Of a stretch of DNA of 64,000 nt, positions 10,939 to 57,436 are shown piece by piece; the stretch's first letter is position 1, and each line of letters starts with the position of its first letter. The stretch comes from Mizuhopecten yessoensis (Eukaryota), in NCBI RefSeq assembly GCF_002113885.1, contig NW_018480034.1, positions 22,098 to 86,097 on the forward strand, given 5' to 3'. The position numbers and the translations under genes were made by a program. The notes beneath the pieces were generated by a model. It was not told the origin of the DNA, searched no databases, and worked only from the letters and a program-made list of their open reading frames with translations.

Positions 10939-13900
10939 ATGTCAGTTCTTGGTGTAGGTCTTCGACGCATCGTTCGCCCTGTTTCAGTGATGCGAAGATG
11001 TTGGTCTGGGGCGAAAATAGTGTGTCCTAGCAGATATACTGTGAAAAGGACACACGTACCTTCTAGTTTATGTCGACATCTTTGTGACCAAAGGTCACCG
11101 GAGCACCTTGAGGTGATGACAAATGAAGAACAGGAAGAGAGCTGTCCAACAGAGCAGGAGGATGTTGAAGATCCTGAAAAACCTCCAAAATCCTTACCGT
11201 TACCCTCCCAGGAATTCCTTGACCTTTTGAACGATCGTCAATTGGACCATTACAAGACTATTTTAGATAAATACGAAAACTTTTGGCGTATCAAATTTGA
11301 TGATGTGAAGGTATGTACAAAATCATTGTAGCATAGACATTGAGTGGATTAGTATAGATTTACTCCTTGGGCCAAGGGGACACGATTCAGTATAAACAGG
11401 GTGACTCTTTTAGGGCTAAGAGGTGAGGCCCAATAAAGAAAATTGAGGTTAATCTTAAAGACATTCTTCTTTCCTGGGCATAAAGGTATTTTGTTCAAAT
11501 TTGCACTTGAGCATCCTTGGGCCGAGAGGATTCATCGTTTTATAAGTGGATGATGTGGTCTTCCTCTGAGGGCAGAGGAGGGGAGCCCAATAAGGGAAAT
11601 ATATAATCTGTTAAATCCTTCTTCATGGATGAAGAGATGGTAATCAAATTTGATCTATAGCATCAATTGTGAGGCAAATACATCCATATTACCAGGATTT
11701 GTTCTGCCATTTCTGTCTGTTTCCATCTCTGGGCACTTAAACCCTAATTTGTCACAACATGGAAATAAATGTAATCCACACACTGATGTAGCCATTGGTT
11801 CATGTAGAGATAAATATACCCCTGGAAACTTAGTTCCTGGAGCATATTCAAAACATATATATATGCTTGTGTAACATTCACGTAGATAAAATTCTCAAAC
11901 AGCCCAACAACAGATTAAGGCAACCCATCAAATAGCTAGCCATGTGCTGTCAATTTTGCTACGAAATATTCCAGGGGTGCAGAGAGCAAATAATTGCATA
12001 ATTCCTGGAGTATCAAGGATATTGGCAAGTCTATCCCAGGTAAAATTGAGGTAATTAAATGTCCGACTAATTGAAATCTGTTTGTAACCAACCGAGTTAC
12101 TGGTTAACTATAGCTAGCTAGCCATTGACAACCACCTGGCCCAAAAGGTGCAGGTTGATGATAATTGACCAGAAACATGCTGGTATGAAGGGCTACCAAC
12201 TTTGTTCAAATTGATGACCCTGACCTATAATAAAGGTCACAGGGGTTAATAAATTTAAAATCTTCAAACAGCTTCTGATGAATAACCATGAGGCCCAGAA
12301 TGTTGATATTTGGCCAATATCATGCTTGGATGAATGGCTATCAAGCTTTTACATTTGAATGTCCTTGACTCGCTTTCAAGGTCACAGGGTCAAATATGCA
12401 TAAGCATTTAAATGACCTTATCTCAATAAACAAAAGGTCTAGGGTAGTGATATTTTGCAAGTTGTATGCTGAGATGAAGGGTTATTAAGTTTGTTCAATG
12501 TAATGACTTTGTTCAACTTTCAAGGTCACAGGGGGCAAATGTTTTTAACAGGTTCTTTTGAATGGCTCGGTCATAAATACTGATATTTTGCCTGTAGCTT
12601 TATTTTACATCACTTTTAAGGTTACAATTGTGAGATTAATACCAGGTGAGTGATGCAGGCCCATTGGGCCTCTTGTTCTGTTTTCTAGTGATACAATTTA
12701 TTTGCATTATGATATTTTTCAGCTACGCCCCGATATCATATTGTTGGCTAATCCATGGTTGCTATATTTAAATTACATGTAATATCTTGCCAAGGTGTAT
12801 TCTCTTCCTCACCACATAATACGTAAGCAGAAGTAGGCAGAAATTCTATGATGAAATGTTGAACAAGGATAAATCAATTGCATTGCTTTTCCAGGTGCCT
12901 TCTGTCCTGAAAGATTCCAACTGGAGATTCATCCTCGGATTTGGGACATCTAAGACATTACAAGTTTTAAGAATGCTTCATAGCAGGGAGGCAAAGAAAA
13001 AACTGAAACGAGAAACAAAACCAAAAGAAAAAAATCAAAACGTCATCATGCACAGTCACACCTTACCAAACAAAAGTTCACAGAAAGCTTATGATATCCT
13101 GAAGACATACAAGGCCATGGAGTATGGCCAACAGCTTGTGTTTGACCTTGGTTTTAAAATTGATGCTGAAGTAACTCACATTTTTAGGGAAGAGAGACGA
13201 ATCAAAAAGCAAATAAACCAAATAATACATGACAACGCCAGACAAAGATTTCCATTTCACTTGGTGTTCTGTAACGTAAATGAGCAAACTCGCAGTATGT
13301 TGGAGGAAGCGGCTGGTGATATTCCCATTACAATCACAGATCAGTGCTACCTGAGCATGTTCTCAAGGAAAGACCTTGTATACCTTTCCCCTGACGCAGC
13401 GACCGAGCTCGAAACTTACAACCACAATTGTGTTTACTTAGTCGGTTGTATTACAGACCTGGAAACCAAGCCGTTGACAAAGAGCAAGGCACAAAAGCAG
13501 GGTCTCAAACATATGAGTTTCCCTATCAGAAGATACCTAGGGTGAGTTGTAACATAACAATATACTTTATTATGATCGGCTCATATAGGAAACCTGACCT
13601 ATAAAAGCTCCAGATGCAGATACTAATGACGAGAAGGGGTTGGGGGTGGTGGGTGGTGGGTGAGGGATGATGTCTCTATATTTCAGATAATTTTTCCTTA
13701 AATCAAACAAAATGAATAATTTTGTTTATAGAAAATAAAAAGTAAAAGTAAATCTTCTAAAGGATCCATTACAGGTAAAAACACCAGAGAATCCAACTGT
13801 AAAAGTTTTCATGCATACATATCTTTTAAGTTTCATTTTGGAAATAACTGTAGTGCCATTGAGCTTATGGTATGGTGTGTTGTCTGTCGTCCGTCAACTG

Positions 13901-23089: not shown

Positions 23090-26000
23090 ATGCCCCTTCC
23101 AGCGGCATTGTTGGCGCGTCTGCAGAAAAGGGGAATTGTTAAAGAAAAGGAAGAAAAACCAGGTGCGTGGCCTCCACATACAGAGTTACTTGCCCTTCAA
23201 CAAAGAATTACATGTGTTATGATACGTTACGTTGTAGATTATGTGACAAACTTATATTGTTTGAATGTTCCCATTCATCTGATTGTTAAAACCGTGAAAA
23301 ATGTGGTTCAGTATCGTTTTGATTACACGGCAATACATTATAGATGAATCTACATGGGATTGAAAAAGTGAACCGGCCCCTCACGGCCTCAGTTTCAACT
23401 CTAAGCACAGGTGCTGGCACACTGATTTGATGTGTATGTACTATATAATAGTATTATTATTATAGTATTATATACAAATCATATCAAGTGTGTCCAGCAC
23501 CTGTGACACTAATTACAGAGCTAAGGGAAAATTCCCTCTAGAAATTAAAGCGACCTAAATATATAATTGAAACCTAGCTTTGGCACATTTATAATATTAA
23601 AAAATATTCAGATAATACAATGTCACTGGCTGCAGCTATCTGAACAGAAACACATCCACATTTAAAATAATTGTAAACATGCTCAACATATGTACATGTA
23701 AATACTCATAGGATCACATGTACAGTCTCTTTAATTTCTAGCTCTGTGCTAGATGGAATTTCCCATCGGCATCAGCTCAATTGGTCGGAGAAGCTGTGGG
23801 TCACTGGTTTGTTTCTCCAATGGAAGCACACTATTCTCTTTTCTGTATATGATATTATCTCTACAATAACAAAATCATTAATGTCTTACCCGTGACGTGG
23901 AATATATATATGCTACTGACACAAACTGCCATTATTATCATTTATTGTGGAGTCTCCTTAAAGCTGCGGTCACATCTTAAGGTCACGCATGTAATATAAG
24001 TTGACTGTAGTGAGGATGACCACAGTTGACTAGTAGACCGTAGGTGACCTTAGTTAAACGTAGTTCAACGTAGTTATAAACGTATATAGCTTGAACTTCA
24101 ATAAACCCATGACTTGGCCGTGGCTATAGCCCAAATTTTTTCAACATGTTCAAAATATCTCTAACCGTGAGTTTGGATGCCAAGACCCTACTGTGACTGT
24201 AGATTGAATGTAGCTGACCCTACTTAGTTCATATAGTTCAAATAGCGATGACGCCGATTGAAAGCTGTGAGCTTCTTATGGCGCGTTTGAATATACCTGA
24301 CCGTGGTGTTTACCGTAGTTGATCGTAGCTAGTAACATGGCAATACGACTAAATTAACACTACCTACGATCAAGTTAAGTCGAACAGGCCTAGGGACAAC
24401 TACTAGGGTTGGACTATGTTTGAAGAACGTTCACAGTACTGTTAAGTACGGTTAACTAGGGTCAACTAGCTATAGGGTGAAATAGGGTTAAGTAATATTG
24501 AATTTAGGAGTTAAGGTTAGGGAACTACGTCTAACTACGTTAAATACATTTTGCTAAGGTCACCTACGGTCTACTACAGTCAACTGTGGTCATGACCGTA
24601 AGATGTGACCACGGCTCAAGCTTGTATTGATGCTTGGCATCTTTTTCTTATGGAAAAGACACAAACATAAACATTATCAAGGGCTTTTGTTGACCATTGA
24701 CACTTAGCAACTTCTGAAGCAATTTCAGAAATCAGAAAGAAATTTCCCTGAATTTCAGAAAGTCAAAACATGTATATGTCAAATAGACCTTTTCTCTAAA
24801 ACCCAAAACTCGAAGCTTATTTTGGGGAGTCAAAAACAATAAATCCCAAGGGTCGGTTCAAAGCCCTGATTACCACGGAGTAAAAAAAATATGGATTGAA
24901 AGACAGCAGCTATATTAGAGGATTTATAATATATTCATTGTGCTGTCTACATGTAAACCATATTTTTATAGTCACACTGACACCAGTGCCAGTGTCAAGT
25001 TCGGAGCCAGTTGAAGAGGTTTTCGCTGAAGATTATGATGATCCAACCAAAGACCAGAACTCCAATTTGGAAGAAGAAGAAAGTCCTGCTATAATCCCTG
25101 AACCTGAAAATGTAGGACCCCTCTTCTGGGAAGTGTCTGCATGTCCCAATAAAAATAACCCTTATCACAAATGTGTCGCTTACTGTCATGAACGATGGGG
25201 AATGGAAACTTTCAATGGCAGTGAAGATATGCTGAGGAAACGAGATCGAATGCTTCGGAGACATCCACTCCCGGAGGGATGGGAGGAAGTCGCAGACTCG
25301 GAAAGGTAAGAATTTTTCTCCAAAATCTGTTCAATTCAAGACTATTGTCAAATGAAATGCATTCACAACTTATTGTTATCGTATAACAGTTACTTGTATA
25401 TAAGCAGCACTTACATCATTATTTGAAGTTAAGAAAACAATATATTAATTCTCTCTGGGTGAAAGAAATTCTGTAATCGGCATTGATTATGAAAACTGTC
25501 TTGTTCATGTAGTACCCAGTATATCTGAAAGGAAAGGATATGTTTCCAATTGTATTATTTTTAATTCATATTGGAAAAATTACCCATAATCATATGATAA
25601 ATTCTTATTGATGCCATATTAGCTAGTTATAGGTTGTGTCCCCTTAGCTGCATTCACATATGATAGATCTCACCAATACAATGTACATGTATGTATATAT
25701 TTGTCTCCCTCCTTAAATACGAGCTTACTATGACATATATATTTTAAAACAAAATTATAATTATCATGTTCCAAATTCTTGAAGATGATCCGCTCAAGTA
25801 AACAAATTCTATATATATATTTATTATTTAAAGGTCTTCCTGTAGTTAAGCTATCTTGACAGAGTTGTCAATCCATATACTCACTCACATGTACGTGACA
25901 AATGAAGCTTGTATGAAATTGACAATGTACATTTTAAATGAAATGACCTTTTATAAAGAAGGCTTTTTTAATATTCATGATGTTAAATTGTGCAAAAAGT

Positions 26001-35352: not shown

Positions 35353-38300
35353 TTAGAACACAGAGAAATTATGTTGATACGACGGTAAGTCGACTATAGT
35401 GCTAGTTCTGATGCTGTACGTCGAGCCCATGGGGGTGGGGATGAGAGTGTGATCTGGAACAACGCCCCTACCCAAGGGCCAACCCTCGCACCCGCTGTCG
35501 ATGTCTGTCCAAGGTTGAGAACGGATGTATCTATCCTCGCATTCCGGACACCTGAGCGGCATCAGTGGGTACCGCTGGCCAGCTACATCTGTAAATCAAT
35601 CAATGAAATGTACAATTAATGAGGACTCTCATATTTTACTAAGAGGGTATCCACAATCGTGAACCGTCGGCACTTTCCGTAAACGACATTTTCTCGAAAA
35701 TCTCGTTTACGGATAGTACCGAAGGTTCCCGATTGATGGTATCCAATGAGTAAAGATTTCTTATCCGAATGAGTTATACATTCATGAGATGAAATAGAAA
35801 TCATAATAAATTATTATTTATTTGATACCCTCTTTGTAAAATATCAATATCTACCCAATTCATGAATTAATACCAAATTATTAACATATTTTCATTCTCA
35901 AAAATATATAACATCAACAAGTAAGGGGATTTTGTTTAGTTTAAAATCAAAGAATTCGAATGATTTTTCCCCAATCTGACACAATCTAGTGGCAATTGCA
36001 CGGCAGATGGATTATAACAACACTGTATATTTCTTGACCATTTTGTTTTATTTCGGGATATATCTCGTTTTTCGTGTTAGTTCGTGAAATAAACCCCAGA
36101 TGTTTAAACTGTCGAATTCAAAATTTCACGAATAAATCATTTTGTAATACAATCCCGAAAATCTTCAAAGTATGTATATATTTATAACGTGACCAATTTG
36201 ATCATGTTTTTTGTTTGTTTTTGTTTTTATGTTATCTACTTAGTAATATTTTTTTAATGCATATTATAACGTGTAATATACATCTAAGCCGACCTTTTCA
36301 CTCAAAATTATTTAATTATCTTTGAAAGTCTTTAATAAGTGTTAGCCAATATATATTACGTCACAGAACTTACCACCACAAATTGTGTAAAACAAACAAA
36401 GACCTTTTTATCAAAAGGAAGGAATGAAGAGTAGCACCCTTCTATGAGTAACGGAAAATCTCATACGGAAGTAATCAGAATTGCCGGTGCTGAGATAAAA
36501 TTTGTTTTTCATTGTCCGTGAAATATATACAACGCTAACTATTGATGACATCGGACACCATTTATAGCCAAGCTGGAATGTATACCCCCTTTTTATCTTA
36601 GCTCCTGTATAATAACGTCCACGCTGGTCGGCTATGGGTTTACATAAAGAAGGCCATCTGGTCGAGAAGAAAGTCCGCTCCCTCGTTTACGGTTTCTTGG
36701 TTCACACTAAACCCGACACCCAACTAGATCCAGATTCACTCTTGAACTTATTACGCCAATCAAAACGATGCCAGAACAGCTGGCTCCCATGCAGTTTTAT
36801 TTAGTGGCTTAATCACAACGTGAATGGAAGTCATTCGGTGATGGGTGTCCTTACACGTATTTTATGTGTTTCAGCAATATAATGTTCGAGTGTAGGTCCT
36901 TAGGGTGAAGGACTAGAAATATGAGTTTCAAACGCATTCAGTCATTTCGTATATCATTCCATTCATTTCAGCACATTGGGATATCATATAGTCTTCACAA
37001 CCAATAGGCCGGCGTATCTTCATAATCAAAGAGTTCCGCTGTCGATAAATTGAGATTGGAGCCCTCGGATTTCGAAGATACGCCGGCATATTGGTTTTGA
37101 AAGAGTCAAGAAGATGTTGTTGTTTTTTGTTTTCTAAATTGTCTGCGTATAATTTTCAAAATTAATGAATATTATTCATATCTATATTTCAAATTGAAAT
37201 GGCTTCATCGAAAAAACTATTTGAGAAAACACTAGTTTGAAATGTTAACATTTCAGCAAATCGATGAAAGGAGAATAGATGTTAAAATATTTTAAAATGA
37301 AATTGACTTGGTTTCGGAGCTGAGATACAGTACCGGTCCCGTTTGTTGTGTTTGGAGCTCGGTTTGAAGTTTGATCGACAGGAGATGGGCGTGGTCCTTT
37401 CTTGGAGGCGTCGGGTTTCTTACGTCGACAGCAGCAGACGATGACAACAATAGCAATGACGACACCGCATGACGTCACAGCGGCGATGATGCCGAGCACT
37501 GGGACGATGGCCGTGCAGCATTCCTCGTCCCCCTGGGCTGAGGTACAGCACCCGTAAGGACACGCTTCACATTCTCCGTCGGTCACTAAAATGTGAAAGA
37601 GATATTCTAAACGATATTTGGGTCAACTAAATCACAAATTTGTATCACCCGTTAAATTATTTCTATTTCTATTCAACAGTTTGCGTACTTAAATTCCATA
37701 ATCATGTATTCAAGAAATTATATCATAGACGTCAGTCATACTCTGTTTGGGGTTTAACGTCCTCGTTACAGCCGGGGTCATATGCGGACTGATGCGGAAA
37801 ACAGGAAAAATGGAAAGGAAAGAGGTCATAGCGGTATACCTTTTCTCTTGAATGAACGTTTCCGCTTTAGCTATTGGTTCTGGATATATAACTTTTCAAT
37901 ACGAGCCTGTATTTCACAAAAAAATATGTTGATAAATAGACTGCGTTTTATATATTTAAATATACAAAATATACTGTTATCTCAAAGCTCTCTCATTACG
38001 ACCTAGCCTCTAAAATACACTATTTAAAAGCTGTTTTTATCACAGGGGCCAGACAGTTTGACATACGATGTATCAATGTACAATCTGTAGGTGGCGCCGT
38101 TTGACTTTTCATTCATCATTCTGCCCCGGCAGGGATGGTACATGTCCAATCACAGGGGCACGCAACTACTATTAATATTGGTCTTGTTAGACTTTCAGTC
38201 TGTGGGTACGGTATTGGGATATGACGTACATGTAACCAGCGACTGAAAGTCTAACAAGATCAATATTAACAGTAGTTAATAGTAGTTGCGTGCCCCTGTG

Positions 38301-39582
38301 GTCCAATTATATATGTACATGTAGGTAAATGTACTATCACTGGTTCAGTAGATGGTATTATCCATTCAATATGTGTCACCGATTCAATTACGTACGCAAT
38401 ATTATTGATGGAATCAGTGATAATATTGATACAATTATGTACAGTATCGATATTATCGATTTAATTATATAAGATGACACTATTTCCCCTTTGTTCTCAT
38501 AGCCTCGATCATAATCACGTGGAAGCCAGTGATTTGAGATATGGACTACTTTTAGAAACAGTAGGTTAGTTAATCTCTTTATGACGTCATTTCATTTGTG
38601 ACGTCACAATTCTCTGTGCAAAAAAAGGACTTTATTTCAGTGAATATGTTGTTGAAACATTGAAATTGACCGAGACGAATAAATAGTGACCCGATGTTAC
38701 TATTTATAGAAACAACATGTTAATAGTATGATAATGACGTCTCTTCAATTCAGCATCATTTGATATTCAATATAACAATTATGGACTTTTTGTTGATATG
38801 GTGAATTGAATCGATGATATAATATACTAAAAAAAATAAGTTGAAGTGAACATTATGGGTAAATAAACATGAATAGTGATGTTAACCGAAACGAGGTGGA
38901 TATTTATAGATTTGTTAATTTATCACTCTTCAGGTTCATATAACCATACACTCACATCAACTGAAGTCCATACATGGTAGATACGCATATGATCGATTCA
39001 GTTATATACAGTTAAACATCACCATTTCGATTATGTACCCTACGTGATATTATCCATTCACAAATTTGGTATAAGTAATATCACCTATGCGAATTCGTGA
39101 TGACATTGACTCGTTGAATAATTAAAGGCACCAGACAGGCCAACGTTAGTTAGTTGACGCATGTATAATACGAAACACTGTCAAAGATCAGCCCGTAATC
39201 TACTTAGGTCTCATGATAAATAACGATATGTGATCCGACCATCAGTTATACTAAAACCTGTTTATTTCCAACGCAAACGTTGAATCCTTATGACGTGTCG
39301 GTTAAGACAGTGTTTACTGTATAAACCGGTGTCGATGAATAAAAAACCCCACATACACTATCTTTTAATGAGTGTCTCGTCTCCATGACGCACACTCGGT
39401 ATGACCAGAATATTCTGCGTTTTTATGACAACAAGGCCTGTATTATAGATTCCTCCGCATTGAAGCCATTTTGGTCTCTGTGGAGTATAACATATATTAT
39501 GGCAAACAATACGTCGGTAGAGTACTTTCTTACCTTCAGCTTGTAGAAGAACCAGGAAAAACACCACAATTACAACTTCCAT
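35353..39582 (-). CDS. Small type-I membrane protein, Shisa/WBP1/VOPP1/CYYR1-like, 3 exons, 178 aa
   Basis: Exons 39534-39582, 37334-37585 and 35353-35588 (phases 1,1). Signal peptide MEVVIVVFFLVLLQAE, Cys-rich ectodomain CEACPYGCC...EECC, TM helix LGIIAAVTSCGVVIAIVVIV, then CCCRRKK and a C-terminal LPSY motif. AATAAA on the minus strand at 35087-35092. Confidence 0.75.
35650..35740. repeat. Short hairpin element; second copy at ~40511-40578
   Basis: CAATCGTGAACCGTCGGCACTTTCCGTAAACGA...TCGTTTACGGATAGTACCGAAGGTTCCCGATTG. Confidence 0.65.
36993..37101. repeat. Hairpin/MITE ~110 bp in Shisa-like intron 2
   Basis: AACCAATAGGCCGGCGTATCTTC / GAAGATACGCCGGCATATTGGTT. Confidence 0.7.
38151..38300. 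mobile_element. 150-bp fold-back MITE with 7-bp TSD (P-element-like ends)
   Basis: GTCCAAT-[CACAGGGGCACGCAACTACTATTAA...TTAATAGTAGTTGCGTGCCCCTGTG]-GTCCAAT. Confidence 0.85.
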
Positions 39583-41459: not shown

Positions 41460-44400
41460 GCCAAAGTGTCTCAAATGGTGTCAGATTCGACAAACTAATC
41501 TGAACAATGAGTATGTCCCACAGGGTGTCGGATTAGACATGTAAATAATAACTATGTGTAATGTCCCAAAGTATGTCGGATCAAACGGTAATCTGACTAG
41601 TACGTTGTGTCTCTGAGTGTTTCACATTAGACAGGTTAATCTGATCATTATGTTGTGTCCAACAGGATGTCAGGTTAGAAAGGTCAATATTACCAATATA
41701 TTGTCTCACAGGGTGTCAGCTTAGAAAGGTCAATATTACCAATATATTGTCTCACATGGTGTCAGGTTAGAAGAGTGAATCTTACCAATATATTGTCTCA
41801 CAGGGTGTCAGGTTAGAAAGGTCAATATTACCAATATATTGTCTCACAGGGTGACAGGTTAGAAGAGTCAATATTACCAATATATTGTCTCACAGGGTGT
41901 CAGGTTAGAAAGGTCGATATTATCAATATATTGTCTCACATGGTGTCAGGTTAGAAGAGTGAATCTTACCAATATATTGTCTCACAGGGTGTCAGGTTAG
42001 AAAGGTCAATATTACCAATATATTGTCTCACATGGTGTCAGGTTAGAAGAGTCAATATAACCAATATATTGTCTCACTGGGTGTCAGGTTAGAAAGGTCA
42101 ATACTACCAATATATTGTCTCACAGGGTGTCAGGTTAGAAGAGTCAATATTACCAATATATTGTCTCACTGGGTGTCAGAATAGAAAGGTCAATATTACC
42201 AATATTTTGTCTCACTGGGTGTCAGGTTAGAAAGGTTAATACTACCAATATATTGTCTCACAGGGTGTCAGGTTAGAAGAGTCAATATTACCAATATATT
42301 GTCTCACAGGGTGTCAGGTTAGAAAGGTCAATATTACCAATATATTGTCTCACATAGTGTCAGGTTAGAAGAGTCAATATAACCAATATATTGTCTCACA
42401 GGGTGTCAGGTTAGAAAGGTCAATACTACCAATATATTGTCTCACAGGGTGTCAGGTTAGAAGAGTCAATATTACCAATATATTGTCTCACTGGGTGTCA
42501 GGTTAGAAGAGTCAATATTACCAATATATTGTCTCACTGGGTGTCAGGTTAGAAGAGTCAATATTACCAATATATTGTCTCACTGGGTGTCAGGTTAGAA
42601 GAGTCAATATTACCAATATATTGTCTCACTGGGTGTCAGGTTAGAAGAGTCAATATTACCAATATATTGTCTCACTGGGTGTCAGGTTAGAAGAGTCAAT
42701 ATTACCAATATATTGTCTCACTGGGTGTCAGGTTAGAAGAGTCAATATTACCAATATATTGTCTCACTGGGTGTCAGGTTAGAAGAGTCAATATTACCAA
42801 TATATTGTCTCACTGGGTGTCAGGTTAGAAGAGTCAATATTACCAATATATTGTCTCACTGGGTGTCAGGTTAGAAGAGTCAATATTACCAATATATTGT
42901 CTCACTGGGTGTCAGGTTAGAAGAGTCAATATTACCAATATATTGTCTCACTGGGTGTCAGGTTAGAAGAGTCAATATTACCAATATATTGTCTCACTGG
43001 GTGTCAGGTTAGAAGAGTCAATATTACCAATATATTGTCTCACTGGGTGTCAGGTTAGAAGAGTCAATATTACCAATATATTGTCTCACTGGGTGTCAGG
43101 TTAGAAGAGTCAATATTACCAATATATTGTCTCACTGGGTGTCAGGTTAGAAGAGTCAATATTACCAATATATTGTCTCACTGGGTGTCAGGTTAGAAGA
43201 GTCAATATTACCAATATATTGTCTCACTGGGTGTCAGGTTAGAAGAGTCAATATTACCAATATATTGTCTCACTGGGTGTCAGGTTAGAAGAGTCAATAT
43301 TACCAATATATTGTCTCACTGGGTGTCAGGTTAGAAGAGTCAATATTACCAATATATTGTCTCACTGGGTGTCAGGTTAGAAGAGTCAATATTACCAATA
43401 TATTGTCTCACTGGGTGTCAGGTTAGAAGAGTCAATATTACCAATATATTGTCTCACTGGGTGTCAGGTTAGAAGAGTCAATATTACCAATATATTGTCT
43501 CACTGGGTGTCAGGTTAGAAGAGTCAATATTACCAATATATTGTCTCACTGGGTGTCAGGTTAGAAGAGTCAATATTACCAATATATTGTCTCACTGGGT
43601 GTCAGGTTAGAAGAGTCAATATTACCAATATATTGTCTCACTGGGTGTCAGGTTAGAAGAGTCAATATTACCAATATATTGTCTCACTGGGTGTCAGGTT
43701 AGAAGAGTCAATATTACCAATATATTGTCTCACTGGGTGTCAGGTTAGAAGAGTCAATATTACCAATATATTGTCTCACAGGGTGTCAGGTTAGAAGAGT
43801 CAATATTACCAATATATTGTCTCACAGGGTGTCAGGTTAGAAGAGTCAATATTACCAATATATTGTCTCACTGGGTGTCAGGTTAGAAGAGTCAATATTA
43901 CCAATATATTGTCTCACTGGGTGTCAGGTTAGAAAGGTCAATATTACCAATATATTGTCTCACAGGGTGTCAGGTTAGAAAGGTCAATATTACCAATATA
44001 TTGTCTCACAGGGTGTCAGGTTAGAAAGGTCAATATAACCAATATATTGTCTCCCAGGGTGTCAGTTTGAAAGGTCAATATTACCAATATATTGTCTCAC
44101 AGTGTGTCAGGTAAGAAGAGTGAATCTTACCAATATATTGTTTCACAGGGTGTCAGGTTAGAAAGGTCAATAATACCAATATACTGTCTCACAGGGTGTC
44201 AGGTTAGAGAAGTGAATCTTACCAATATATTGTCTCACAGGGTGTCAGCTTAGAAAGGTCAATATTACCAATATTGTCTCACTGGGTGTCAGGTTAGAAA
44301 AGTCAATATTACCAATATATTGTCTCACTGGGAGTCAGGTTAGAAGAGTCAATATTACCAATATATTGTCTCACTGGGAGTCAGGTTAGAAGAGTCAATA

Positions 44401-45080
44401 TTCCCAATATATTGTCTCACTGGGTGTCAGGTTACAAGAGTCAATATTACCAATATATTGTCTCACATGGTGTCAGGTTAGAAAGGTCAATATTACCAAT
44501 ATACTGTCTCACAGGGTGTCAGGTTAGAGAAGTGAATCTTACCAATATATTGTCTCACAGGGTGTCAGCTTAGAAAGGTCAATATTACCAATATATTGTC
44601 TCGCAGGGTGTCAGCTTAGAAAGGTCAATATTACCAATATATTGTCTCACAGTGTGTCAGGTTAGAAGAGTCAATATTACCAATATATTGTCTCACATGG
44701 TGTCAGGTTAGAAAGGTCAATATTACCAATATACTGTCTCACAGGGTGTCAGGTTAGAGAAGTGAATCTTACCAATATATTGTCTCACAGGGTGTCAGCT
44801 TAGAAAGGTCAATATTACCAATATATTGTCTCACAGGGTGTCAGGTTAGAAAGGTCAATATTACCAATATATTGTCTCACAAGGATGTCAGGTTAGAAAG
44901 GTTAATCTGACTAATGTGTTTAGCCCACAGGGTGTCGGACAAGACAGGTTAATCTGATAATTTTTCGTGCCCTAGATTAGAAAGGTTAATCTGATCAATA
45001 TGTCGTGCCTTACAGGCTGTCAGATAAGACAGGTTATTTTGACCAATGTGTTGTGTCCAACAGTATGTCAGAATGGACAG
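41460..45080. repeat. Satellite, 46-bp unit CCAATATATTGTCTCACTGGGTGTCAGGTTAGAAGAGTCAATATTA, ~70 clear copies with degenerate flanks
   Basis: Periodicity 46. Identical core ~42450-43770, variant units either side, decayed units at 41460-41660 and 44900-45080. Confidence 0.96.
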
Positions 45081-45169: not shown

Positions 45170-45389
45170 CAAAAAATTATATGAAATATTTTATTTCTCA
45201 TAAATATATAGCAAGCATAAATACAATCTAGCTATGACCAATATTGGTCAAAAGTGCAACGAATGTACATCAGATCGAGGATGAGATCGATATGCCACCA
45301 TCATACAAGATCGATGACGTTCAATTTGTCAACTTCCGTTCCATAATCGACTGATATCGATATTCTTCACGATGCCTGGTGGAATCAAC
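45170..45389 (-). other. Probable terminal (3' UTR) exon of the 46439-48366 gene
   Basis: Acceptor TTGTTTTCCAG|G at 45390 and AATAAA (minus) at 45190-45195. The matching donor TAG|GTAGGC follows directly after the stop codon. Confidence 0.5.
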
Positions 45390-45678
45390 CTGGAAAACAA
45401 AGTTATCGAATAATAACAAAGTGTACGTTCTCCACGACAAAATCTTACATCATTTGTCATGTGACGTCATTTTAAAACTGATTACCATAAAGTATGTTGA
45501 CCACGTTAGTCATACGTTTCTTTAAACTTGTCAGTTTGTCTAATCGTGTCTGCTTAAAACATTCTTAGACATTACGTGTATCGAAAATAAGTCAAAAACG
45601 AGAATATTCCGCTAATCGGTAGTCCAACCAAGTAAAATGATACCGTGTGTATTCGAAAACGAGGGGCGGGCCACCCAC

Positions 45679-46035
45679 TAGCGAGGGACGGTCTACCTAC
45701 ATCACGAGGGGTGGGGTAAATACCTAACGAGGGACGGGCTACCAACATCACGAAGGTGGGGTAAATACCTAACGAGGGACGGGCTACCTACATCACGAGG
45801 GATGGGGTAAATACCTAACGAGGGACGGGCTACCAACATTACGAAGGTGGGGTAACTACCTAACGAGGGACGGGCTACCTACATCACGAATGTAGGGTAA
45901 AAATACCTAACGAGGGACGGGCTACCTACATCACGAAGGTGGGGTAAATACCTAACGAGGGACGGGCTACCTACATCACGAATGTGGGGTAAATACCTAG
46001 CGAGGTACGCGCTTCCTACATCACGAGGGGTGGGG
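45679..46035. repeat. Minisatellite, 45-bp unit TACCTAACGAGGGACGGGCTACCTACATCACGAAGGTGGGGTAAA, ~8 copies
   Basis: Periodicity 45 (45721, 45766...). 21/23 match to 46436-46458. Confidence 0.93.
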
Positions 46036-46438: not shown

Positions 46439-48366
46439 CTAGCGAGGGACGGGGTACCAGTAGTTGATCTGACGCTGGATGCACAGTGGGAACAGAACCA
46501 TGTGTGCCTCCTCAAATCGCTGACAGAACTTCCTCTCCCAGTACAGGTTATCCTGTGGCAGCTCTTTGGTCAGTACCACGGACAGCTCTAGTCCGTAGTT
46601 AAACAACATCATGGCTTCTGACCGCTTGGCGAAATTGGCTTTGTCCCTCTTGCGACTTCCAGAAGGCTTCCAAAATGACCTCCTTTTGACCTGGCATGGG
46701 ACAGTACCGCAGTGACGACAGCGTGAAGGCCCTGTTCATGCACCAATGACATGTATGTTAGGATAGAAGAAGAAAAACCAATAGATTGATTCAACATGAA
46801 ACTATATCGTGTAGATCGGAACGACACGACCATCAGCAGTGCGATTCAGCCAAAGTGCCTTAAAAATGAAGTTTAAGTATTCAAATTATATCAAAAATTC
46901 AACGAGTGAGTTTACTGAATCGTTAGTATACTATTTATGTTATAAGAGCTATTTCCCTTGATGGTGCTTTCACGTTACGTCATTTCCCCGTTTTTCTAGG
47001 CTAATTTACTTTTTTTCCGTAATGTTGATAGAACTTAACGTCCTGTTAGAGAATTATCCAGTGTTTTCTCTGGTTACATTTATAAGCTATTTATATTTGT
47101 AACCGTGGCTCAGTTTTTGAGATAAAATAATGTATTACTTTTCATCCCAGCACAAAATATACGTTGACGCAATTCCTGATGACACAATGTTAAATTTTGC
47201 CGTAAAAATGTTTTGTCCAACTAACTCATTATGGTTAGAGTCTTATGAAACGGATAAGTATATTCATATATAAGCTGTATGCTAAATTTCATAAAAGCTG
47301 GACTGAAAATTAAGCAAGGAAAAATAATTTTCCAGAAGTAAATTACCATAAAATTCAATAGGAAAGTGACGAAAACGTTTAAGAATTTTGGCATTTTTTT
47401 TAAAATACAAGAAAAAACTTAGAAGGAAAGGAGGAACCAAAAGGAATGGCGTTGATGTATTTTTATATAATCACAAAATTGATACTTTAACATTTTAACT
47501 GCAATCATCAATATTACTTACGATTCCACCATGCGCGGACCATTAAAACCATGGCCGACCATCTCTCTTTGGCGCTCTTTCTGATCGACGGCGCATAGCC
47601 CAACAGCAGGGTTAGAAGCACACAGAGAAGGGTGCAGAATACCTCATTTCCAATTCGCTAGAATGATTATAAATGTGATCAGTTAATATTTCAGACCCTC
47701 TTTCTCGTTTCTCCTCCCCTTTTATTAATATTGATATATTTTTTTTATATCTTGTTCTGCCCTAAACTTTTTTCGTTTTTTGGATATAAAATTTGTATAT
47801 TACTTGATGTAAAATATATTTCATAATATGTTTATACGGAGAAGATGCACAAAGTTGTTAGAACTTGTTTCTGATCCATTTGTCTGCACATAAAATAACT
47901 TTAAATCAAAATCAGTGTTTCAGACTCGCGAATTCAGATGGATAAAAAAAGCCCAGTGACGCGAACAAAAATGGGGTAACAAAGCGAAAAGATTATTTAA
48001 TAACAACGGTGCAAAAATACTGAGCAAGGTGTCTTAAATATCAACAGGACATACATCAAAACTAAAATACATACCCAAGTCAAATCGGCAGATGTTGGAC
48101 AAACTTTCTCAATTTCTGTTGCGGTGAAGTACTGGAAGAATCTTTTGGTGTATCCAGGCTCTAGCTCCACGCTAAACAAATAATACAAAATAATGATTAA
48201 TTATTTCCAAACTTTGAATGAAACTATTCCTAAAAATTGAAAACGTGTATTCACGTTAGAAATAACACCATGCGTAATTTCAACTTACAATCAGTACGGA
48301 ATAGATGCAAACTTACCACGTAAGGTCCCGATATACAGCAGGACCTCGGTGCACTGCGCTCATCAT
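46439..48366 (-). CDS. Uncharacterised 191-aa membrane-anchored protein with Cys-containing (P2X7 C-terminal-like) domain, 4 coding exons
   Basis: Exons 48317-48366, 48075-48171, 47522-47657 and 46439-46731. Strong donors (GTAAGT, GTATGT, GTAAGT) and phases 2,0,1 join into an open 576-nt CDS. TM-like EVFCTLLCVLLTLLLGY, then CRHCGTVPC...NFAKR...FPLCIQRQINYWYP. Confidence 0.72.
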
Positions 48367-48675
48367 TACAACATATATCAAGAATAATTTGATATCCATT
48401 GTGGTAATCCAGGTATTAATACAAAAAGATAATTTCAGGGGAGAGACTGATCATCTCCGCCTTTGCCGATTGCTAAGCAGCTAAGCAACAAGTATCTGAC
48501 GTCACAAAAGACTTCTTCCATCATTACGTCATGCAACTATCTGTTCACTGTGTGCGAAACGATGATACACTGATGACAATGGCATTTCTCTATAAATAAG
48601 TAATAACATTGTACATTTTTCTTACATGAAGGTGTCTGCCCCCAGTTTACAGCGACTGTGATCAATTCTTCTAGG

Positions 48676-49312
48676 AGTCAAATTTGGGACTGTAGCGACA
48701 TTGAGCAATTTCGTTACGAGTCCATTTCGGGATTGTAGCGACATTGAGCGATTCCGTAACGAGTCAAATTTGGGACTGTAGCGACATTGAGCGATTTCGT
48801 TACGAGTCAAATTCGGGACTGTAGCGACATTGAGCGATTTCGTAACGAGTTAAATTCGGGACTGTAGCGACATTGAGCGATTCCGTAACGAGTCAAATTT
48901 GGGACTGTAGCGACATTGAGCGATTTCGTAACGAGTCAAATTCGGGACTGTAGCGACATTGAGCAATTCCGTAACGAGTCAAATTCGGGACTGTAGCGAC
49001 ATTGAGCAATTCCGTAACGAGTCAAATTCAGGACTGTAGCGACATTGAGCAATTTCGTAACGAGTTAAATTCGGGACTGTAGCCGACATTGAGCGATTTC
49101 GTAAGGAGTCAAATTCGGGACTGTAGCGACATTGAGCAATTCCGTAACGAGTCAAATTCGGGACTGTAGCGACATTGAGCAATTCCGTAACGAGTTAAAT
49201 TCGGGACTGCAGCGATATTGCGCGATTTGGCTAGGATTCAAATTCGGGACTGTAGCGACATTGAGCAATTCCGTTACGAGTCAAATTGGGAACTTTACAG
49301 TGACATTGAGCG
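48676..49312. repeat. Minisatellite, 43-bp unit CGAGTCAAATTCGGGACTGTAGCGACATTGAGCGATTTCGTAA, ~15 copies
   Basis: Periodicity 43 (48760, 48803...). CpG-rich and ~300 bp upstream of the 48366 ATG. Confidence 0.93.
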
Positions 49313-50230: not shown

Positions 50231-50294
50231 CTGATCTTATGAGGTATTTCTTAGATCCGGGTAAGGTTATTCTGATATAGACGCCTGGTAAATA

Positions 50295-53200
50295 TTCTCG
50301 TTGTTAACTCAATCAAATGGAGACTCCTGGTACAGATACTCATTGTTAACTCTATCAAATGTAGACTCCTGGAACAGATACTCATAGTTAACTCTATCAA
50401 ATGTAGACTCCTGGTACAGATACTCATAGCTAACTCTATCAAATGTAGACTCCTGGTACAGATACTCATTATTAATTCTATCAAATGTAGACTCCTGGTA
50501 CAGATCCTCATTATTAACTCTATCAAATGTAGACTCCTGGAACAGATACTCATAGTTAACTCTATCAAATGTAGACTCCCGGAACAGATACTCATTGTTA
50601 ACTCTATCAAAGGTAGACTCCTGGTACAGATACTCATAGCTAACTCTATCAAATGTAGATTCCTGGTACAGATACTCATTGTTAACTCTATCAAAGGTAG
50701 ACTCCTGGTACAGATACTCATAGCTAACTCTATCAAAGGTAGACTCCTGGTACAGATACTCATAGTTAACACTATCAAATGTAGACTCCTGGTACAGATA
50801 CTCATTATTAACTCTATCAAATGTAGCCACCGGTACAGATACTCATAGTTAACTCTATCAAATGTAGACTCCCGGTCCAGATACTCATAGTTAACTCTAT
50901 CATATGTAGACTCCTGGTACAGAACCTCGTTGTAAACTCTATCAAATGTAGACTCCTGGTGCAGATACTCATAGTTAACTCTATCATATGTAGACTCCTG
51001 GTACATAACCTCATTGTAAACTCTATCAAATGTAAACTCCTGGTACAGATACTCATAGTTAGCTCTATCAAATGTAGACTCCCGGTACAGATACTCATTG
51101 TTCTCCTGGTACAGAACCTCATTGTAACCTCTATCAAATGTAGACTCCTGGTACAGATACTCATAATTAACTCTATCAAATGTAGACTCCTGGTACAGAT
51201 ACTCATTGTTAACTCTATCATATGTAGACTCCTGGTACAGAACCTCATTGTAAACTCTATCAAATGTAGACTCCTGGTACAGATACTCATAGTTAACTCT
51301 ATCAGATGTAGACTCCCGGTACAGATTATCATTGTTAACTCTATCAAATGTAGACTCCTGGTACAGATACTCATTGTTAACTCTATCAAATGTAGACTCA
51401 CAGTACCAGGAGTCTACATTTGATAAAGTTTACAATGAGGTTCTGTACCAGGAGAACAATGAGTATCTGTACCGGGAGTCTACAGTTGATAGAGTTAACA
51501 ATGAGTATCTGTCCCGGGAGTCTACATTTGATAGAGTTAATTATGAGTATCTGTACCAGGAGTCTACATATGATAGAGTTAACAATGAGTATCTGTATCG
51601 GGAGTCTACATTTGATAGAGTTAACTATCAAATGTAGACTCCTGGTACTGTGAGTCTACATTTGATAGAGTTAATTATGAGTATCTGTACCAGGAGTCTA
51701 CATTTGATAGTTAACTCTATCAAATGTAGACTCCTGGTACAGATACTCATTGTTAACACTATCAAATGTAGACTCACAGTACAGATACTCATTGTTAACT
51801 CTATCAAATGTAGACTCCCGGAACAGATACTCATAGTTAACTGTATCAAATGTAGACTGGTACAGATACTCATTGTTAAATCTATCAAATGTAGACTCAC
51901 AGTACAGCTACTCATTGTTAACTCTATAAAATGTAGACTCCTGCTACAGATACTCATTGTAAACTCTATCAAATGTAGCCTCCTGGTACAGATATTAATT
52001 GAACTAAATTAAGACTGCTGTAGACATACTCAAATGTTAACTCTGGGCACATCAAGTCATTGTTCACTCCTCTCTCCATGATAAATCAAAACAACACATG
52101 AAGATATTGGGATTGTTTCTTTTATTATTTCTGATACCTTATGTAAGCTTATTGTACTGGCAACATGAGATAACCAATACGTTAAAAGTATATTTAACTC
52201 TATCAAATGTAAAATCCTGGTACAGATACTCATTGTTAAATCTATCAAATGTAGAATCCTGGTACAGATACGTGCTGTTAACTCTATCAAATGTAAAATC
52301 CTGGTACAGATACGCATTGTTAACTCTATCATATGTAGACTCCCGGTACAGATACTCACAGTTAACTCTATCAAATATAGACTCCTGGTACAGGTACTCA
52401 TAGTTAACTGTATCAAATGTAGACTGGTACAGATACTCATGGTTAACTCTATCAAATGTAGACTGGTACAGATACTCATAATTAACTCTATCAAATGTAA
52501 AATCCTGGTACAGATACCCATTGTTAACTCTATAAAATGTAGACTCCTGCTACAGATACTCATTGTAAACTCTATCAAATGGAGACTCCTGGTACAGAAC
52601 CTCATTGTAAACTCTATCAAATGGAGACTCCTGGTACAGGTACTCATAGTTAACTCTATCATATGTGGACTCCCGGTACAGTTACTCATTGTTAACTATA
52701 TCACATGTAGACTCCAGGTACAGATACTCATTGTAAACTCTATCAAATGTACACTCCCGGTACCGATACTCATAGTTAACTCTATCAAATATAGACTCCT
52801 GGTACAGGTACTCATAGTTAACTCTATCATATGTAGACTCCCGGTACAGTTATTCATTGAACTAAATTAAGACTTCTGGTCAGATATTCATAGAACTATA
52901 TTAAGACTCCTGTAAACATACTCAAATGTTAACTCTGGGCACATCAAGTCATGGTTTACTCCTCTCTCCATGATAAATCGAAACAACACATGAAGATATT
53001 GGGATTGTTTCTTTTATTATTTCTGATACCTTATGTAAGCTTATTGTACTGGCAACATGAGATAACCAATACGTTAAAAGTATATTTAACTCTATCAAAT
53101 ATAGACTCCTGGTACAGGTACTCATAGTTAACTCTATCAGATGTAGACTCCCGGTACAGTTATTCATTGAACTAAATTAAGACGCCTGGTACAGTTATTC

Positions 53201-53690
53201 ATTGAACTAAATTAAGACGCCTGGTACAGATATTCATAGAACTATATTAAGACTCCTGGTACAGGTACTCATAGTTAACTGTATCAAATGTAGACTCACA
53301 GTACCAGGAGTCTACATTAGATAGAGTTAACTATGCGTATCTGTACCGGGAGTCTACATTTGATAGATTTAACAATGAGTATCTGTCCCGGGAGTCTACA
53401 TTTGATACAGTTAACTATGAGTATCTGTACCAGGATTTTACATTTGATAGAGTTAGCTATGAGTATCTGTACCAGGAGGCTACATTTGATAGAGCTAACA
53501 ATGAGTATCTGTCCCAGGAGTCTACATTTGATACAGTTAACTATGAGTACCTGTACCAGGAGTCTATATTTGATAGAGTTAATTATGAGTATCTGTACCT
53601 GGAGTCTACATGTGATATAGTTAACAATGAGTAGCTGTACTGTGAGTCTACATTTGATAGTTAACTCTATCTAATGTAGACTCCTGGGTA
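50295..53690. repeat. Satellite, 42-bp unit AACTCTATCAAATGTAGACTCCTGGTACAGATACTCATAGTT, with inverted blocks and interspersed unique modules
   Basis: Periodicity 42. Inverted blocks at ~51403-51625, ~51645-51712 and ~53302-53662. A further array lies at 55805-56275. Confidence 0.95.
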
Positions 53691-53789
53691 GATATTCATT
53701 GAACTAAATTAAGACTCCTGGTACAGATATTCATAGAACTAAATTAAGACTCCTGGTCAGATATTCATAGAACTAAATTAAGACTCCTG

Positions 53790-55798
53790 TAGACATACTC
53801 AAATGTTAACTCTGGGCACATCAAGTCATTGTTCACTCCTCTCTCCATGATAAATCAAAACAACACATGAAGATATTGGGATTGTTTCTTTTATTATTTC
53901 TGATACCTTATGTAAGCTTATTGTACTGGCAACATGAGATAACCAATACGTTAAAAGTATATATAATAAGGTGTTGTAAATTGTCACAAAATATAGTTTT
54001 CTAGTGATATAATAGGAAACATTTTTACTGCAAAAGATGGACCAACCACAGAACAGAATAACTGAGGAGAAAAACATAAAACATGTACAAAATCTCTCCA
54101 ATACATCAGAAATTATTATTATATCACTTATTATTGATAAAGACCCACCTTTATTGGTGCATAGGTAAGTAACAAACCTAAAATTGCAGATGAGAAAATC
54201 TGCATTTAAACCCTACATCAGATATTTCAGAGAAAATAAGACTCTCCTCTTATTTTATAAACTTTAGACCAAAAATGACAAATTTTTTTATGTATAAAAC
54301 AAACATTTCTATTTATAAAAATATCCTTTACGTTGAAATGAACACAAATGTTAACAAAAAAGTTGCAATTAATTTCTTGCGCTGATATAAGCTGATATAA
54401 CAATCAGTTTTAGACCAAAATTACTTATATTTCCATTTCATCATTCTTCAGAGAGCTGTAACGCGTTTAAATGTAGGTATGCAAATATTTTAGAGAAAAC
54501 TATTTTCCAACATTGTTTTTTATTCAAAAGGAACATCTCACTATAGGGGACAACTATTCAACCAATAAAAAGGACAAACAAAAATTTATAGTAGCATTCT
54601 TTTTTACAATTAGGCAAACTATGTTTTTTCTTAAATTTGCATAATGCTCTTCAAATTTTAAGTAGCGTGAATTTATTTTTCATTTTTTTTAAAGCATAAA
54701 ATCTTCTTTAACACTCATTTTAAAATGACATTTATCGGTAAACCTATTATAAATTGAAATTCAAACACAAAATTTTGCAGATTTAAACCCAGGGACTATC
54801 AACATGTCATCAAAACTCAGCTACTGTAAAGCTGTAGGTTCAATCACAAGCAGAGCTTTTTTGCAATGCTTAAATTTCAGATATTACCAGCAAATTTAGA
54901 TATGTTTTTAAATAAATAGATTGATTCTAGATGTTTCCTTAATTCCATTATAAAGATCAGGAATGTCACAATGTCATGTTCCTTGTAAGTTTGATGAAAC
55001 CTCGTCAGAATAAAAAAATATATAAATAAATTACATCATTTTGACATTTTTTCTAAGACTTAAAACTTAAAATTCAACTTTATCTAGATTTTCAGATTAT
55101 TAAAATAGTTGTTTTTTCTTTTTTGCAATGTTTACATTTCAGATAAAACCAGCAAATTGAGATATGTTTTTATATAAATAGATTGATTCTAGATGTTTCC
55201 TTAAGTTGTTTTGCTCCTATCCAGTATTTTATTAACCCTTTCACCACTGTAGACCATAATGGACTCATCCAGATCACGGGAGAATCTACTTAAGTTGCAT
55301 AGAGGTGGAAGGGTTAATTCCAATATAAAGATCAGGAATGTCACAATATTCCTTGTTAGTTTGATGACACCTCGTCAGAAAAATATATATAAATAAATTA
55401 CATCATTTTGACATATTTTCTAAGACTTAAAGAGCCAAAATGTCTGGATTAACAAAATTCAACTTTATCTAGATTTTCAGATAATTAAAAATTTGTTGAA
55501 CTAAGTAAGCATCCAACACTCATTTTATTTTAAGGGCATTCAATATGTCAGACATGGCTTGCTCTGATTATAAGGAAACGTTTGTAAACAATGAATATCA
55601 AAATAATGCAAATCATCTTACTGAATAAAAAACAAAGTGATCAATATACTCTTGTTCCCTTTTTTAAAATGTTAAGATTTTTCAAAAATAACAAACAGTT
55701 TCTGTGATTTAAGTTCGTAAGATTAAATGTCTTGCACAAACTTCGAAAAAAACCGAATCGGTATGAAGTAAAATTTTGTTTATGCCGAGACATAACCT
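53790..55798 (+). repeat. ~2-kb tandem segmental duplication, copy 1 (copy 2 at 57436-59527)
   Basis: Both copies start TAGACATACTCAAATGTTAACTC and end TATGCCGAGACATAACCT, and are colinear throughout. The first ~170 bp also occur at 52021-52193 and 52913-53085. Confidence 0.92.
55236..55313. mobile_element. 78-bp piggyBac-like mini-MITE (duplicate at 58969-59046)
   Basis: TTAA-CCCTTTCACC...GGTGGAAGGG-TTAA. Absent from the paralogous site at 54939. Confidence 0.8.
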
Positions 55799-55804
55799 TC
55801 ATAA

Positions 55805-56275
55805 CTCATTGTTAACTCTATCAAATGTAGACTCCCGGTACAGATACTCATAGGTAACTCTATCAAATGTAGACTCCCAGTACAGATACTCATAGTTAAC
55901 TCTATCAAATGTAGATTCCCGGTACAGATACTCATAGTTAACTCTATAAAATGTAGACTCCCGGTACAGATACTCATAGGTAACTCTATCAAATGTAGAC
56001 TCCCAGTACAGATCCTTATTTTTAACTCTATCATATGTAGACTCCTCCCGGTACAGATACTCATAGTTAACTCTATCAAATGAAGACTCCCAGTACAGAT
56101 ACTTATTTTTAACTCTATCATATGTAGACTCCCGGTACAGATACTCATTGTTAACTCTATCAAATGTAGACTCCCGGTACAGATACTCATAGTTAACTCT
56201 ATCAAATGTAGACTCCCAGTACAGATACTTATTTTTAACTCTATCATATGTAGACTCCCGGTACAGTTATTCATT
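55805..56275. repeat. Second array of the 42-bp satellite
   Basis: Same unit as 50295-53690. Confidence 0.9.
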
Positions 56276-56319
56276 TTCAACTTTATCATGGTGCAGATTT
56301 TCATTAACTCAATCCTCTA

Positions 56320-57436
56320 AGTACAGATATTCATTTAATCGAATTCAGACTCCTGGTACAGATATTCATTTAATCGAATTCAGACTCCTGGTACAGATAT
56401 TCATTTAATCGAATTCAGACTCCTGGTACAGATATTCAATAATTCAAATTTAGACTCTTGGTACAGATATTCATCGAACTAAATTAAGACTCCTGGTCAG
56501 ATATTCATTGAACTAAATTAAGACTCCTGGTACAGATATTAATTGAACTAAATTAAGACGCCTGGTACAGATATTCATTGAACTAAATTAAGACTCCTGG
56601 TACAGATATTCATTGAACTAAATTAAGACTCCTGGTACAGATATTCATTGAACTAAATTAAGACTCCTGGTACAGATATTCATTGAACTAAATTAAGACT
56701 CCTGGTACAGATATTCATTGAACTAAATTAAGACTCCTGGTACAGATATTCATTGAACTAAATTAAGACTCCTGGTACAGATATTCATTGAACTAAATTA
56801 AGACTCCTGGTACAGATATTCATTGAACTAAATTAAGACTCCTGGTACAGATATTCATTGAACTAAATTAAGACTCCTGGTACAGATATTCATTGAACTA
56901 AATTAAGACTCCTGGTACAGATATTCATTGAACTAAATTAAGACTCCTGGTACAGATATTCATTGAACTAAATTAAGACTCCTGGTACAGATATTCATTG
57001 AACTAAATTAAGACTCCTGGTACAGATATTCATTGAACTAAATTAAGACTCCTGGTACAGATATTCATTGAACTAAATTAAGACTCCTGGTCAGATATTC
57101 ATTGAACTAAATTAAGACTCCTGGTACAGATATTCATTGAACTAAATTAAGATTCCTGGTCAGATATTCATTGAACTAAATTAAGACTCCTGGTACAGAT
57201 ATTAATTGAACTAAATTAAGACGCCTGGTACAGATATTCATTGAACTAAATTAAGACTCCTGGTACAGATATTCATTTAACTAAATTAAGACTCCTGGTA
57301 CAGATATTCATTGAACTAAATTAAGACTCCTGGTCAGATATTCAATGAACTAACTTAAGACTCCTGGTCAGATATTCATTAAACTAAATTAATACTCCTG
57401 GTAATGATATTCATTGAACTAAATTAAGACTCCTGT
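56320..57436. repeat. Satellite, 35-bp unit GACTCCTGGTACAGATATTCATTGAACTAAATTAA, ~31 copies
   Basis: Periodicity 35 (56592, 56627...). Shares GACTCCTGGTACAGATA.TCAT with the 42-bp unit. Short runs also at ~51980-52020, 52850-52912, 53160-53260 and 53680-53790. Confidence 0.95.

Follow-up and report, generated by a model that had tools for sequence, protein, structure and literature searches.

A dispersed scallop family of spliced genes for predicted single-pass membrane proteins, with a possible KolX/P2X7-ballast-like domain and young copies associated with (GA)n tracts

A spliced gene on the minus strand of the window

The window analyzed here is a stretch of 64,000 nucleotides from Mizuhopecten yessoensis (contig NW_018480034.1, positions 22,098 to 86,097), and positions are counted from its first letter. 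It contains a real, spliced scallop gene on the minus strand (Table 1). The initial annotation had proposed four exons with canonical splice sites, the first at 48366-48317 and the others as exons 2 to 4 of Table 1. GT and AG were present at the sites, and the exons joined exactly into the 191-aa frame described. A 409-nt contig from run X1 crosses the junctions 48075/47657 and 47522/46731 exactly, with no differences from the window copy in exons 3 and 4 and three in exon 2. The junction 47522/46731 was seen again in run X3, in which exon 1 is covered as well, starting at 48494, free of mismatches and ending precisely at the 48317 donor. The join between exons 1 and 2 was seen in paralogue contigs only (runs X4 and X6). 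Runs X1, X3, X4 and X6 were taken as RNA by guess; the joins are intron-exact, and in all four the family contigs have deep coverage over exons and almost none over introns.

Two parts of the gene had been missed. The frame is open for 11 codons further upstream, with an ATG at 48399, giving a 202-aa product identical to the NCBI model LOC110442493 (P0002) of Mizuhopecten yessoensis; the 191-aa version was too short and lacked the signal-peptide-like N-terminus. The second missing part is a non-coding exon 5. Exon 4 ends with the stop codon, and a donor site follows directly. Because the loose end of the X1 contig matches 45358-45382 exactly, exon 5 was placed from 45389, and a counterpart is also found in paralogues. 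In one family member (L003, G000:C4651:937449-937739) CAG replaces the TAG that ends exon 4, which would lead translation into exon 5; neither exon 2 nor exon 3 was detected at that locus.

Table 1. Features of the window gene and examples of the cassette (positions refer to the window unless a contig of genome G000 is named)
Feature	Position	Strand	Description
Distal CRE-like site	48524..48531	-	TGACGTAA here; TGACGTCA in most copies
Proximal CRE palindrome	48497..48504	-	TGACGTCA; immediately precedes 48494, the farthest transcript end observed
RFX X-box-like palindrome	48470..48489	-	near the transcription start
Exon 1	48317..48494	-	5' UTR and coding part 48399-48317; residues 1 to ~15/19 predicted signal peptide; Cys28 begins here
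Exon 2, 97 nt	48075..48171	-	short ectodomain with invariant Cys52 (predicted Cys28-Cys52 disulfide)
Exon 3, 136 nt	47522..47657	-	predicted TM helix, residues ~66-82 (47642-47592), and basic amphipathic linker
Exon 4, 293 nt	46439..46731	-	entire Cys domain; stop codon at exon end
Exon 4, motif 1	46720-46694	-	CxxCxxxPC
Exon 4, motif 2	46636-46601	-	NxxxRxxAxxxF
Exon 4, motif 3	46489-46451	-	PxCxxxxIxxxYP
Minisatellite	45678..46035	.	45/91-bp units, within intron 4
Exon 5, non-coding 3' UTR	45190..45389	-	AATAAA at 45195-45190; 3' boundary provisional
Cassette example 1	G000:C875:386572-392147		
Cassette example 2	G000:C4411:500595-505738		

The product is a predicted type I membrane protein

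In 30 full-length homologues a short hydrophobic N-terminus follows K/R4 and GPxxY is invariant. Cys28 is conserved in 29 of them and Cys52 in all 30. The hydrophobic stretch at residues ~66-82 has a 19-residue hydropathy of 2.07, and in the 30 homologues the net charge is -1.3 before and +3.0 after it. Hydropathy and charge thus agree with the hydrophobic helix and basic C-terminal flank originally described, and the Cys domain is, as had been claimed, wholly contained in a single exon. Across the 30 proteins both properties fit a type I membrane protein; an uncleaved two-helix topology may fit too. In the simplest reading, hydropathy suggests a type I membrane protein whose ectodomain is small and disulfide-linked and whose Cys domain faces the cytosol. 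Cleavage of the signal peptide would leave a disulfide-stapled ectodomain of ~45 aa outside the cell and the Cys domain in the cytosol. Within the domain four cysteines are invariant (110, 113, 118 and 189), while Cys175 is variable; the four would bind one zinc, compared with two in the P2X7 ballast.

The gene belongs to a dispersed family restricted to scallops by name

A search of genome G000 with the exon 4 peptide returned 66 matches among 69 candidates. Of these, 51 cover at least 86 of the 97 residues, at 69-100% identity. The copies are scattered over many contigs, and some may be alleles assembled twice. Paralogues share with the window copy the exons and ~150 bp upstream, the introns mostly not. 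After exclusion of six regions without an exon 4 match over 100 bp, 55 copies were scored. All four coding exons were found in 42 of them, and 13 were incomplete, partly through assembly gaps. An intact 609-nt frame (exons of 83, 97, 136 and 293 nt) is present in 29 of the 42 complete copies and broken in the other 13. Retroposition of a spliced mRNA was considered as a source of copies and rejected, since introns are kept in all 42.

Named homologues come from four scallop genera only, namely Mizuhopecten, Pecten, Ylistrum and Argopecten. When 1.84 billion representatives were searched with HMMER, 15 matches were obtained, and those to which neither the cluster look-up nor the other searches gave a scallop name are three short unnamed ORFs at ~30-41% identity. 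Scans of viral and metagenome contigs yielded 18 and 89 pattern matches, respectively, of which none was confirmed. Protein length is 195-202 aa and identity across genera ~70%. The family is annotated only as 'uncharacterized', and no publication on it was found via locus ids, topic or the supplements of PMC6708199 and PMC11814522; subscription papers, Repbase or other supplements may describe the cassette or its expression.

Truncated and frameshifted proteins were left out of the phylogenetic analysis, which kept 38 rows. The base of the resulting tree is unresolved. Species-specific clades with good support contain 11 proteins in Mizuhopecten, 7 in Ylistrum and 3 in Argopecten; the window copy falls outside the 11. 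The longest branch is that of P0050 (G000:C5561:922929-924281), a highly divergent member with 48% identity in the domain and a shorter insert between motifs 2 and 3.

Exon 4 dN/dS against the window copy had a median of 0.16 for 29 paralogues (L030, misaligned by an indel, is counted in this median), indicating purifying selection among the paralogues. Omega for exon 4 was ~0.22-0.25 at dS above 0.2 and 0.35-0.65 in the youngest pairs. The private changes of 22 young intact copies comprise 152 nonsynonymous changes versus 226 expected (omega 0.67, p=0.0035), with an omega of 0.52 within the Cys domain. Old branches bear the mark of strong selection; in single copies it can still be seen, though it is weak.

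Promoter motifs hint at sperm-forming or ciliated cells

Of 46 copies, 44 carry a CRE-like 8-mer no more than 200 bp from the ATG, as a rule in two places at ~-140 and ~-105, against a background of 0.009. An X-box-like palindrome, assigned by the RFX consensus, is found in 35 of the 46 (background 0.017). The counts come from related copies and hence are not independent. Both motifs are nevertheless retained by old lineages in which the DNA around them can no longer be aligned. In mouse, CREM and RFX2 are master regulators of spermiogenesis and RFX sites cluster at start sites, the target sets of the two factors barely overlapping (PMC4498915). As a lead, the promoter motifs point to sperm-forming or ciliated cells, in which CRE and X-box together would drive expression. 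Expression appears uneven between runs: eight of the 24 listed were examined, and the raw RNA runs X15, X20 and X18 contained only 3, 2 and 66 reads of the family.

A suggestive link of the Cys domain to KolX and the P2X7 ballast

The initial annotation had likened exon 4 to the C-terminal ballast of P2X7 and to accessory domains of transposons. One part of this claim stood, as a published KolX-like protein shows this arrangement of motifs; the other did not, as homology tests were non-significant. The piggyBac-borne protein piggyBac-2_GrCh_2p carries CxxCxxxPC, NxxxRxxAxxxF and PxCxxxxIxxxWP in the same order and with the same inner spacing (PMC9587614 Data S6). In total 13 motif positions match with exact spacing, the comparison being one of short motifs by eye. 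The 15 most conserved of the 97 columns include eight of the 13 (hypergeometric 4e-5, a value inflated by the general conservation of C, P and aromatics); the motif shuffle figure of 3e-11 is post hoc and not a p-value. CxxCxxxPC is also present in piggyBac-14_PI_2p from the same data set. According to Kojima and Bao (PMC9587614), KolX-like proteins borne by piggyBac lose most of the seven ballast cysteines, and the scallop domain has likewise lost them. Unlike the scallop protein, for which both are predicted, these are transposon ORFs without signal peptide or membrane helix. By eye and on short motifs, the scallop protein further differs from them in that ~20 additional residues separate motifs 2 and 3 and the AY..F...HG.LG core is missing.

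Human P2X7 aligns to motifs 2 and 3 at N542-Y553 and P570-P582. The likeness to the P2X7 ballast/ZCD/Nanor/KolX group (PF20478, PTHR36981) extends to architecture: in both, a Cys domain encoded by one exon follows a membrane helix at the C-terminus, in the scallop protein predicted to be cytosolic. Equivalents of N542, R546, A549, P570, C572, I577 and P582 are kept, whereas those of Y550, R551, W556, H547, R574, R578 and K583 are absent and motifs 2 and 3 are separated by an insertion of ~20 residues. Of the terminal pattern (L/I/V)PSC(C/S)x3IRx2(F/Y)P, the spacing of P, C, I, Y and P is kept and IR is IN. In place of the 7-8 cysteines that define a ZCD (PxWCxCx2C; LCCRx3GxC; PSC; PMC7016195), the scallop domain has four that are conserved. 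Among the five GDP-binding residues taken from Rump et al. (PMC7016195; R546, H547, R574, R578, K583), only R546 (R142) is kept by motif alignment. Such a domain may bind proteins, as an adaptor, rather than sense nucleotides. The same paper gives fewer than 10 ZCD genes per invertebrate species, with no transmembrane region, as against ~50 copies and a predicted TM helix in the scallop family.

Profile searches gave no significant match to the ballast. Pfam returned nothing above cut-off for the domain, 30 family members and seven divergent members. A sequence search of the PDB found nothing significant, while a control alignment of true ZCDs found P2X7 at 1e-16. A PF20478 search of the genome gave 28 true ballast-type sites, none from the membrane-gene family; at least 28 canonical sites (L071-L090) compare with fewer than 10 per species as reported in PMC7016195. 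HHalign against 11 PF20478 sites gave Prob 0.3% and 0.2%, and HMM scores lay mostly within shuffles. A two-block PSSM chose the expected register for P0002, equalled in 359 of 1500 shuffles (p ~0.24), and reached 7 of 1500 (p ~0.005) for two of eight tested members; the alignments are shallow (Neff 1.7-2.6), which gives the tests low power. The fold comparison proposed with the P2X7 C-terminal domain gave no P2X7 match, on low-confidence AlphaFold models (pTM 0.25 and 0.44). Fold searches with a weak model had a best Z of 6.4, to generic helical hairpins, and P2X7 was absent from the listing; given the weak model, this counts neither for nor against the link. In the ESM Atlas the full protein had no usable match, and the domain led to DUF6933 at 0.79, under the threshold for a lead.

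We consider homology of the Cys domain to KolX/ballast slightly favored, the link as a whole being suggestive only; the domain would then be a worn relative of the transposon protein from which P2X7 also acquired its tail. The competing view, that the domain is unrelated and resembles KolX by chance (a zinc knuckle of a common type, together with some C, P and aromatic residues), is a serious one to which we give somewhat less than an even chance; it is separate from the question of how the copies spread. All profile and fold tests were negative, as it would have it, and no intermediates beyond the three short unnamed ORFs turned up among the 1.84 billion representatives. Against chance speak the three ungapped blocks in the order and spacing of a published KolX-like protein, foretold before look-up (PMC9587614), the register that HHalign and PSSM both chose unprompted, and the two divergent members at p ~0.005 in tests of low power. 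If the link is true, a KolX-type domain would have been fused to a membrane protein for the second time, and the scallop domain would show the P2X7 ballast in a minimal natural form.

Young copies share a cassette with many ends at (GA)n tracts

A cassette of ~5.6 kb, which starts ~1.75 kb before the ATG and ends ~2.3 kb past exon 4, is common to 38 of the 55 copies; a minisatellite swells it in some. Cassette ends pile up at two positions, and the top matches of both end sequences are gene-bearing loci. Of 32 5' ends, 12 have a tract of (GA)4+ no more than 120 bp away, and so do 11 of the 35 3' ends, always on the same strand. Six copies, C875, C4411, C426, C5239, C5592b and C5554.2, have such a tract on both sides. 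No end carried (TC)4+, and the GA background was 0.0023 per search window (64 control loci). About two thirds of the ends have no GA tract. Several shortened ends meet the tract at GA or AGAG microhomology. Head-to-tail junctions occur in seven places on six contigs, two of them via a GA-rich spacer; one small contig that repeats such a junction was kept apart from the seven.

No terminal inverted repeats were found around the 21 copies examined, where TIRs under ~15 bp on old copies could escape; a recurrent inverted pair of ~250 bp (~70% identity) is internal to the cassette. The initial annotation had held that many TIR-flanked copies would mark an ordinary transposon gene: the copies are many, yet TIRs are lacking. 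Its statement that no transposase lies nearby holds for the cassette, and no transposase ORF is shared among 146 ORFs near copies, the long ones being scattered LINE and LTR pieces. Helitrons were rejected as well: by the end consensus TC...CTRR, the 5' TC is present at the cassette ends and the 3' CTRR absent. Rfam 'mir-5014' matches fall below the gathering score and mark a long hairpin. A nearly perfect hairpin of ~140 nt lies near the cassette 5' end in the C4667 array (L140:7156-7296 and L141:4391-4527). ORF pieces 4-6 kb upstream of one copy (L046-L047, G000:C3636), which resemble Polinton/Maverick capsid genes, have no counterparts at other copies.

The pattern of the cassettes fits ectopic conversion or circle integration at GA tracts. 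New copies may arise by ectopic gene conversion into pre-existing GA tracts; alternatively, circles could form between flanking GA tracts and re-insert into another tract. The host would then retain many copies through birth and death. The window copy itself represents an older lineage between minisatellite arrays, and neither mechanism is supported for it because its flanks carry neither the shared sequence nor any GA tract. Whether or not the domain link holds, the young subfamily offers a clean example, in countable numbers, of the spread of an intact animal gene with five exons in strand-specific association with (GA)n.

Alternative origins and modes of spread

The reading that we prefer, and to which we give an even chance, takes the window gene as an intact member of a dispersed scallop family of ~50 copies. 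Its product would be a 202-aa, receptor-like, predicted single-pass membrane protein with a possibly reduced KolX/P2X7-ballast domain in the cytosol, under selection by the host, and recent copies would likely have spread as whole-gene cassettes via (GA)n.

The cassette pattern also fits mobilization in trans by a microsatellite-targeting element (PMC8869645, PMC8557442, PMC3846280, PMC3212892). On this account, which we regard as unlikely, the cassette is a non-autonomous element, the gene is its cargo, and a CryptonV-like tyrosine recombinase or a Penelope-like retroelement supplies the enzyme. The piled-up ends without TIRs, the single orientation relative to (GA)n, the truncated ends abutting GA and the partial tandems all speak in its favor, as do at least 150 DUF3504/Crypton-type matches in the genome, some of them identical. 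Some CryptonV families insert in microsatellites (PMC8869645), and Penelope-like elements retain introns, make partial tandems, favor microsatellites and are able to mobilize genes of the host in trans (PMC8557442, PMC3846280). Omega climbs from ~0.2 in old pairs to 0.35-0.65 in the youngest, as in transposon families. However, the cassette has no recombinase, reverse transcriptase, endonuclease or hammerhead of its own, inverted truncated copies are lacking and its ends are not common to gene-free elements. Comparison of 30 of the at least 150 DUF3504 loci (±1.5 kb) revealed no partner element with common ends, the exceptions being an internal repeat of ~220 bp and two matches of 33-53 bp. 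The cargo, moreover, is a membrane protein without an obvious role in transposition, yet individual copies are under selection. Separately, the loci L204-L215 form a young DUF3504/Crypton-type family of about ten equal-scoring copies with open frames of up to 506 aa.

A more far-reaching version of events is in our view rather improbable. Here the transposon-derived KolX/ballast domain would have joined a membrane anchor a second time, independently of P2X7, in the scallop ancestor, and the germline gene would now be a cassette that spreads itself into (GA)n, possibly as a gamete-level driver family. A selfish germline family proper, a poison/antidote meiotic driver that spreads through dispersed repeats like the wtf genes of fission yeasts, appears quite improbable. 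The wtf family is likewise compact and dispersed, with new copies at short dispersed repeats, and conversion or circle integration at 5S rDNA has been proposed for it (PMC9562144). There is no sequence link between the two, the repeats are (GA)n in scallops and 5S rDNA or LTRs for wtf, and drive in the scallop family is hypothetical. In addition, neither a second isoform nor a linked antidote was seen, and sequence and length are conserved in the scallop proteins (195-202 aa, ~70% identity across genera).

That the gene is a plain accessory gene carried by Kolobok or piggyBac elements with TIRs is very improbable and already largely refuted: KolX-like genes do occur in such elements (PMC9587614) and the copy number is high, but the 21 copies have no TIR, the 146 ORFs include no shared transposase, and the ends are GA rather than TTAA. 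The single domesticated gene of the initial annotation, with syntenic one-to-one orthologues across bivalves, retains hardly any probability and is refuted as stated because of copy number (51 near-full copies, scallop-only named homologues and a tree of expansions rather than one-to-one groups), even though the gene is intact, spliced and under purifying selection.

Neighboring features

Minisatellite arrays at 41668-44898, 48675-49311 and 50278-57435, with units of 46, 43, 42 and 35 bp, flank the gene; near 50.8-53.8 kb they switch orientation and contain a duplicated block. On the minus strand, 5794-6405 is an exon of a metallo-beta-lactamase-fold gene (Lactamase_B_2, E 7e-13), which to us resembles NAPE-PLD. 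The plus-strand ORF at 12820-13545 is tRNA m1G methyltransferase-like (PF01746, E 3e-5) and presumably TRMT10C. Another plus-strand ORF (24884-25309) has no Pfam match; we take it to resemble the WW-domain protein PQBP1. Finally, a minus-strand exon at 37245-37622 encodes a Cys-rich ectodomain and TM segment with a weak WBP-1 match (E 0.003), and two CRE palindromes at 38582-38606 may be the promoter of this gene.
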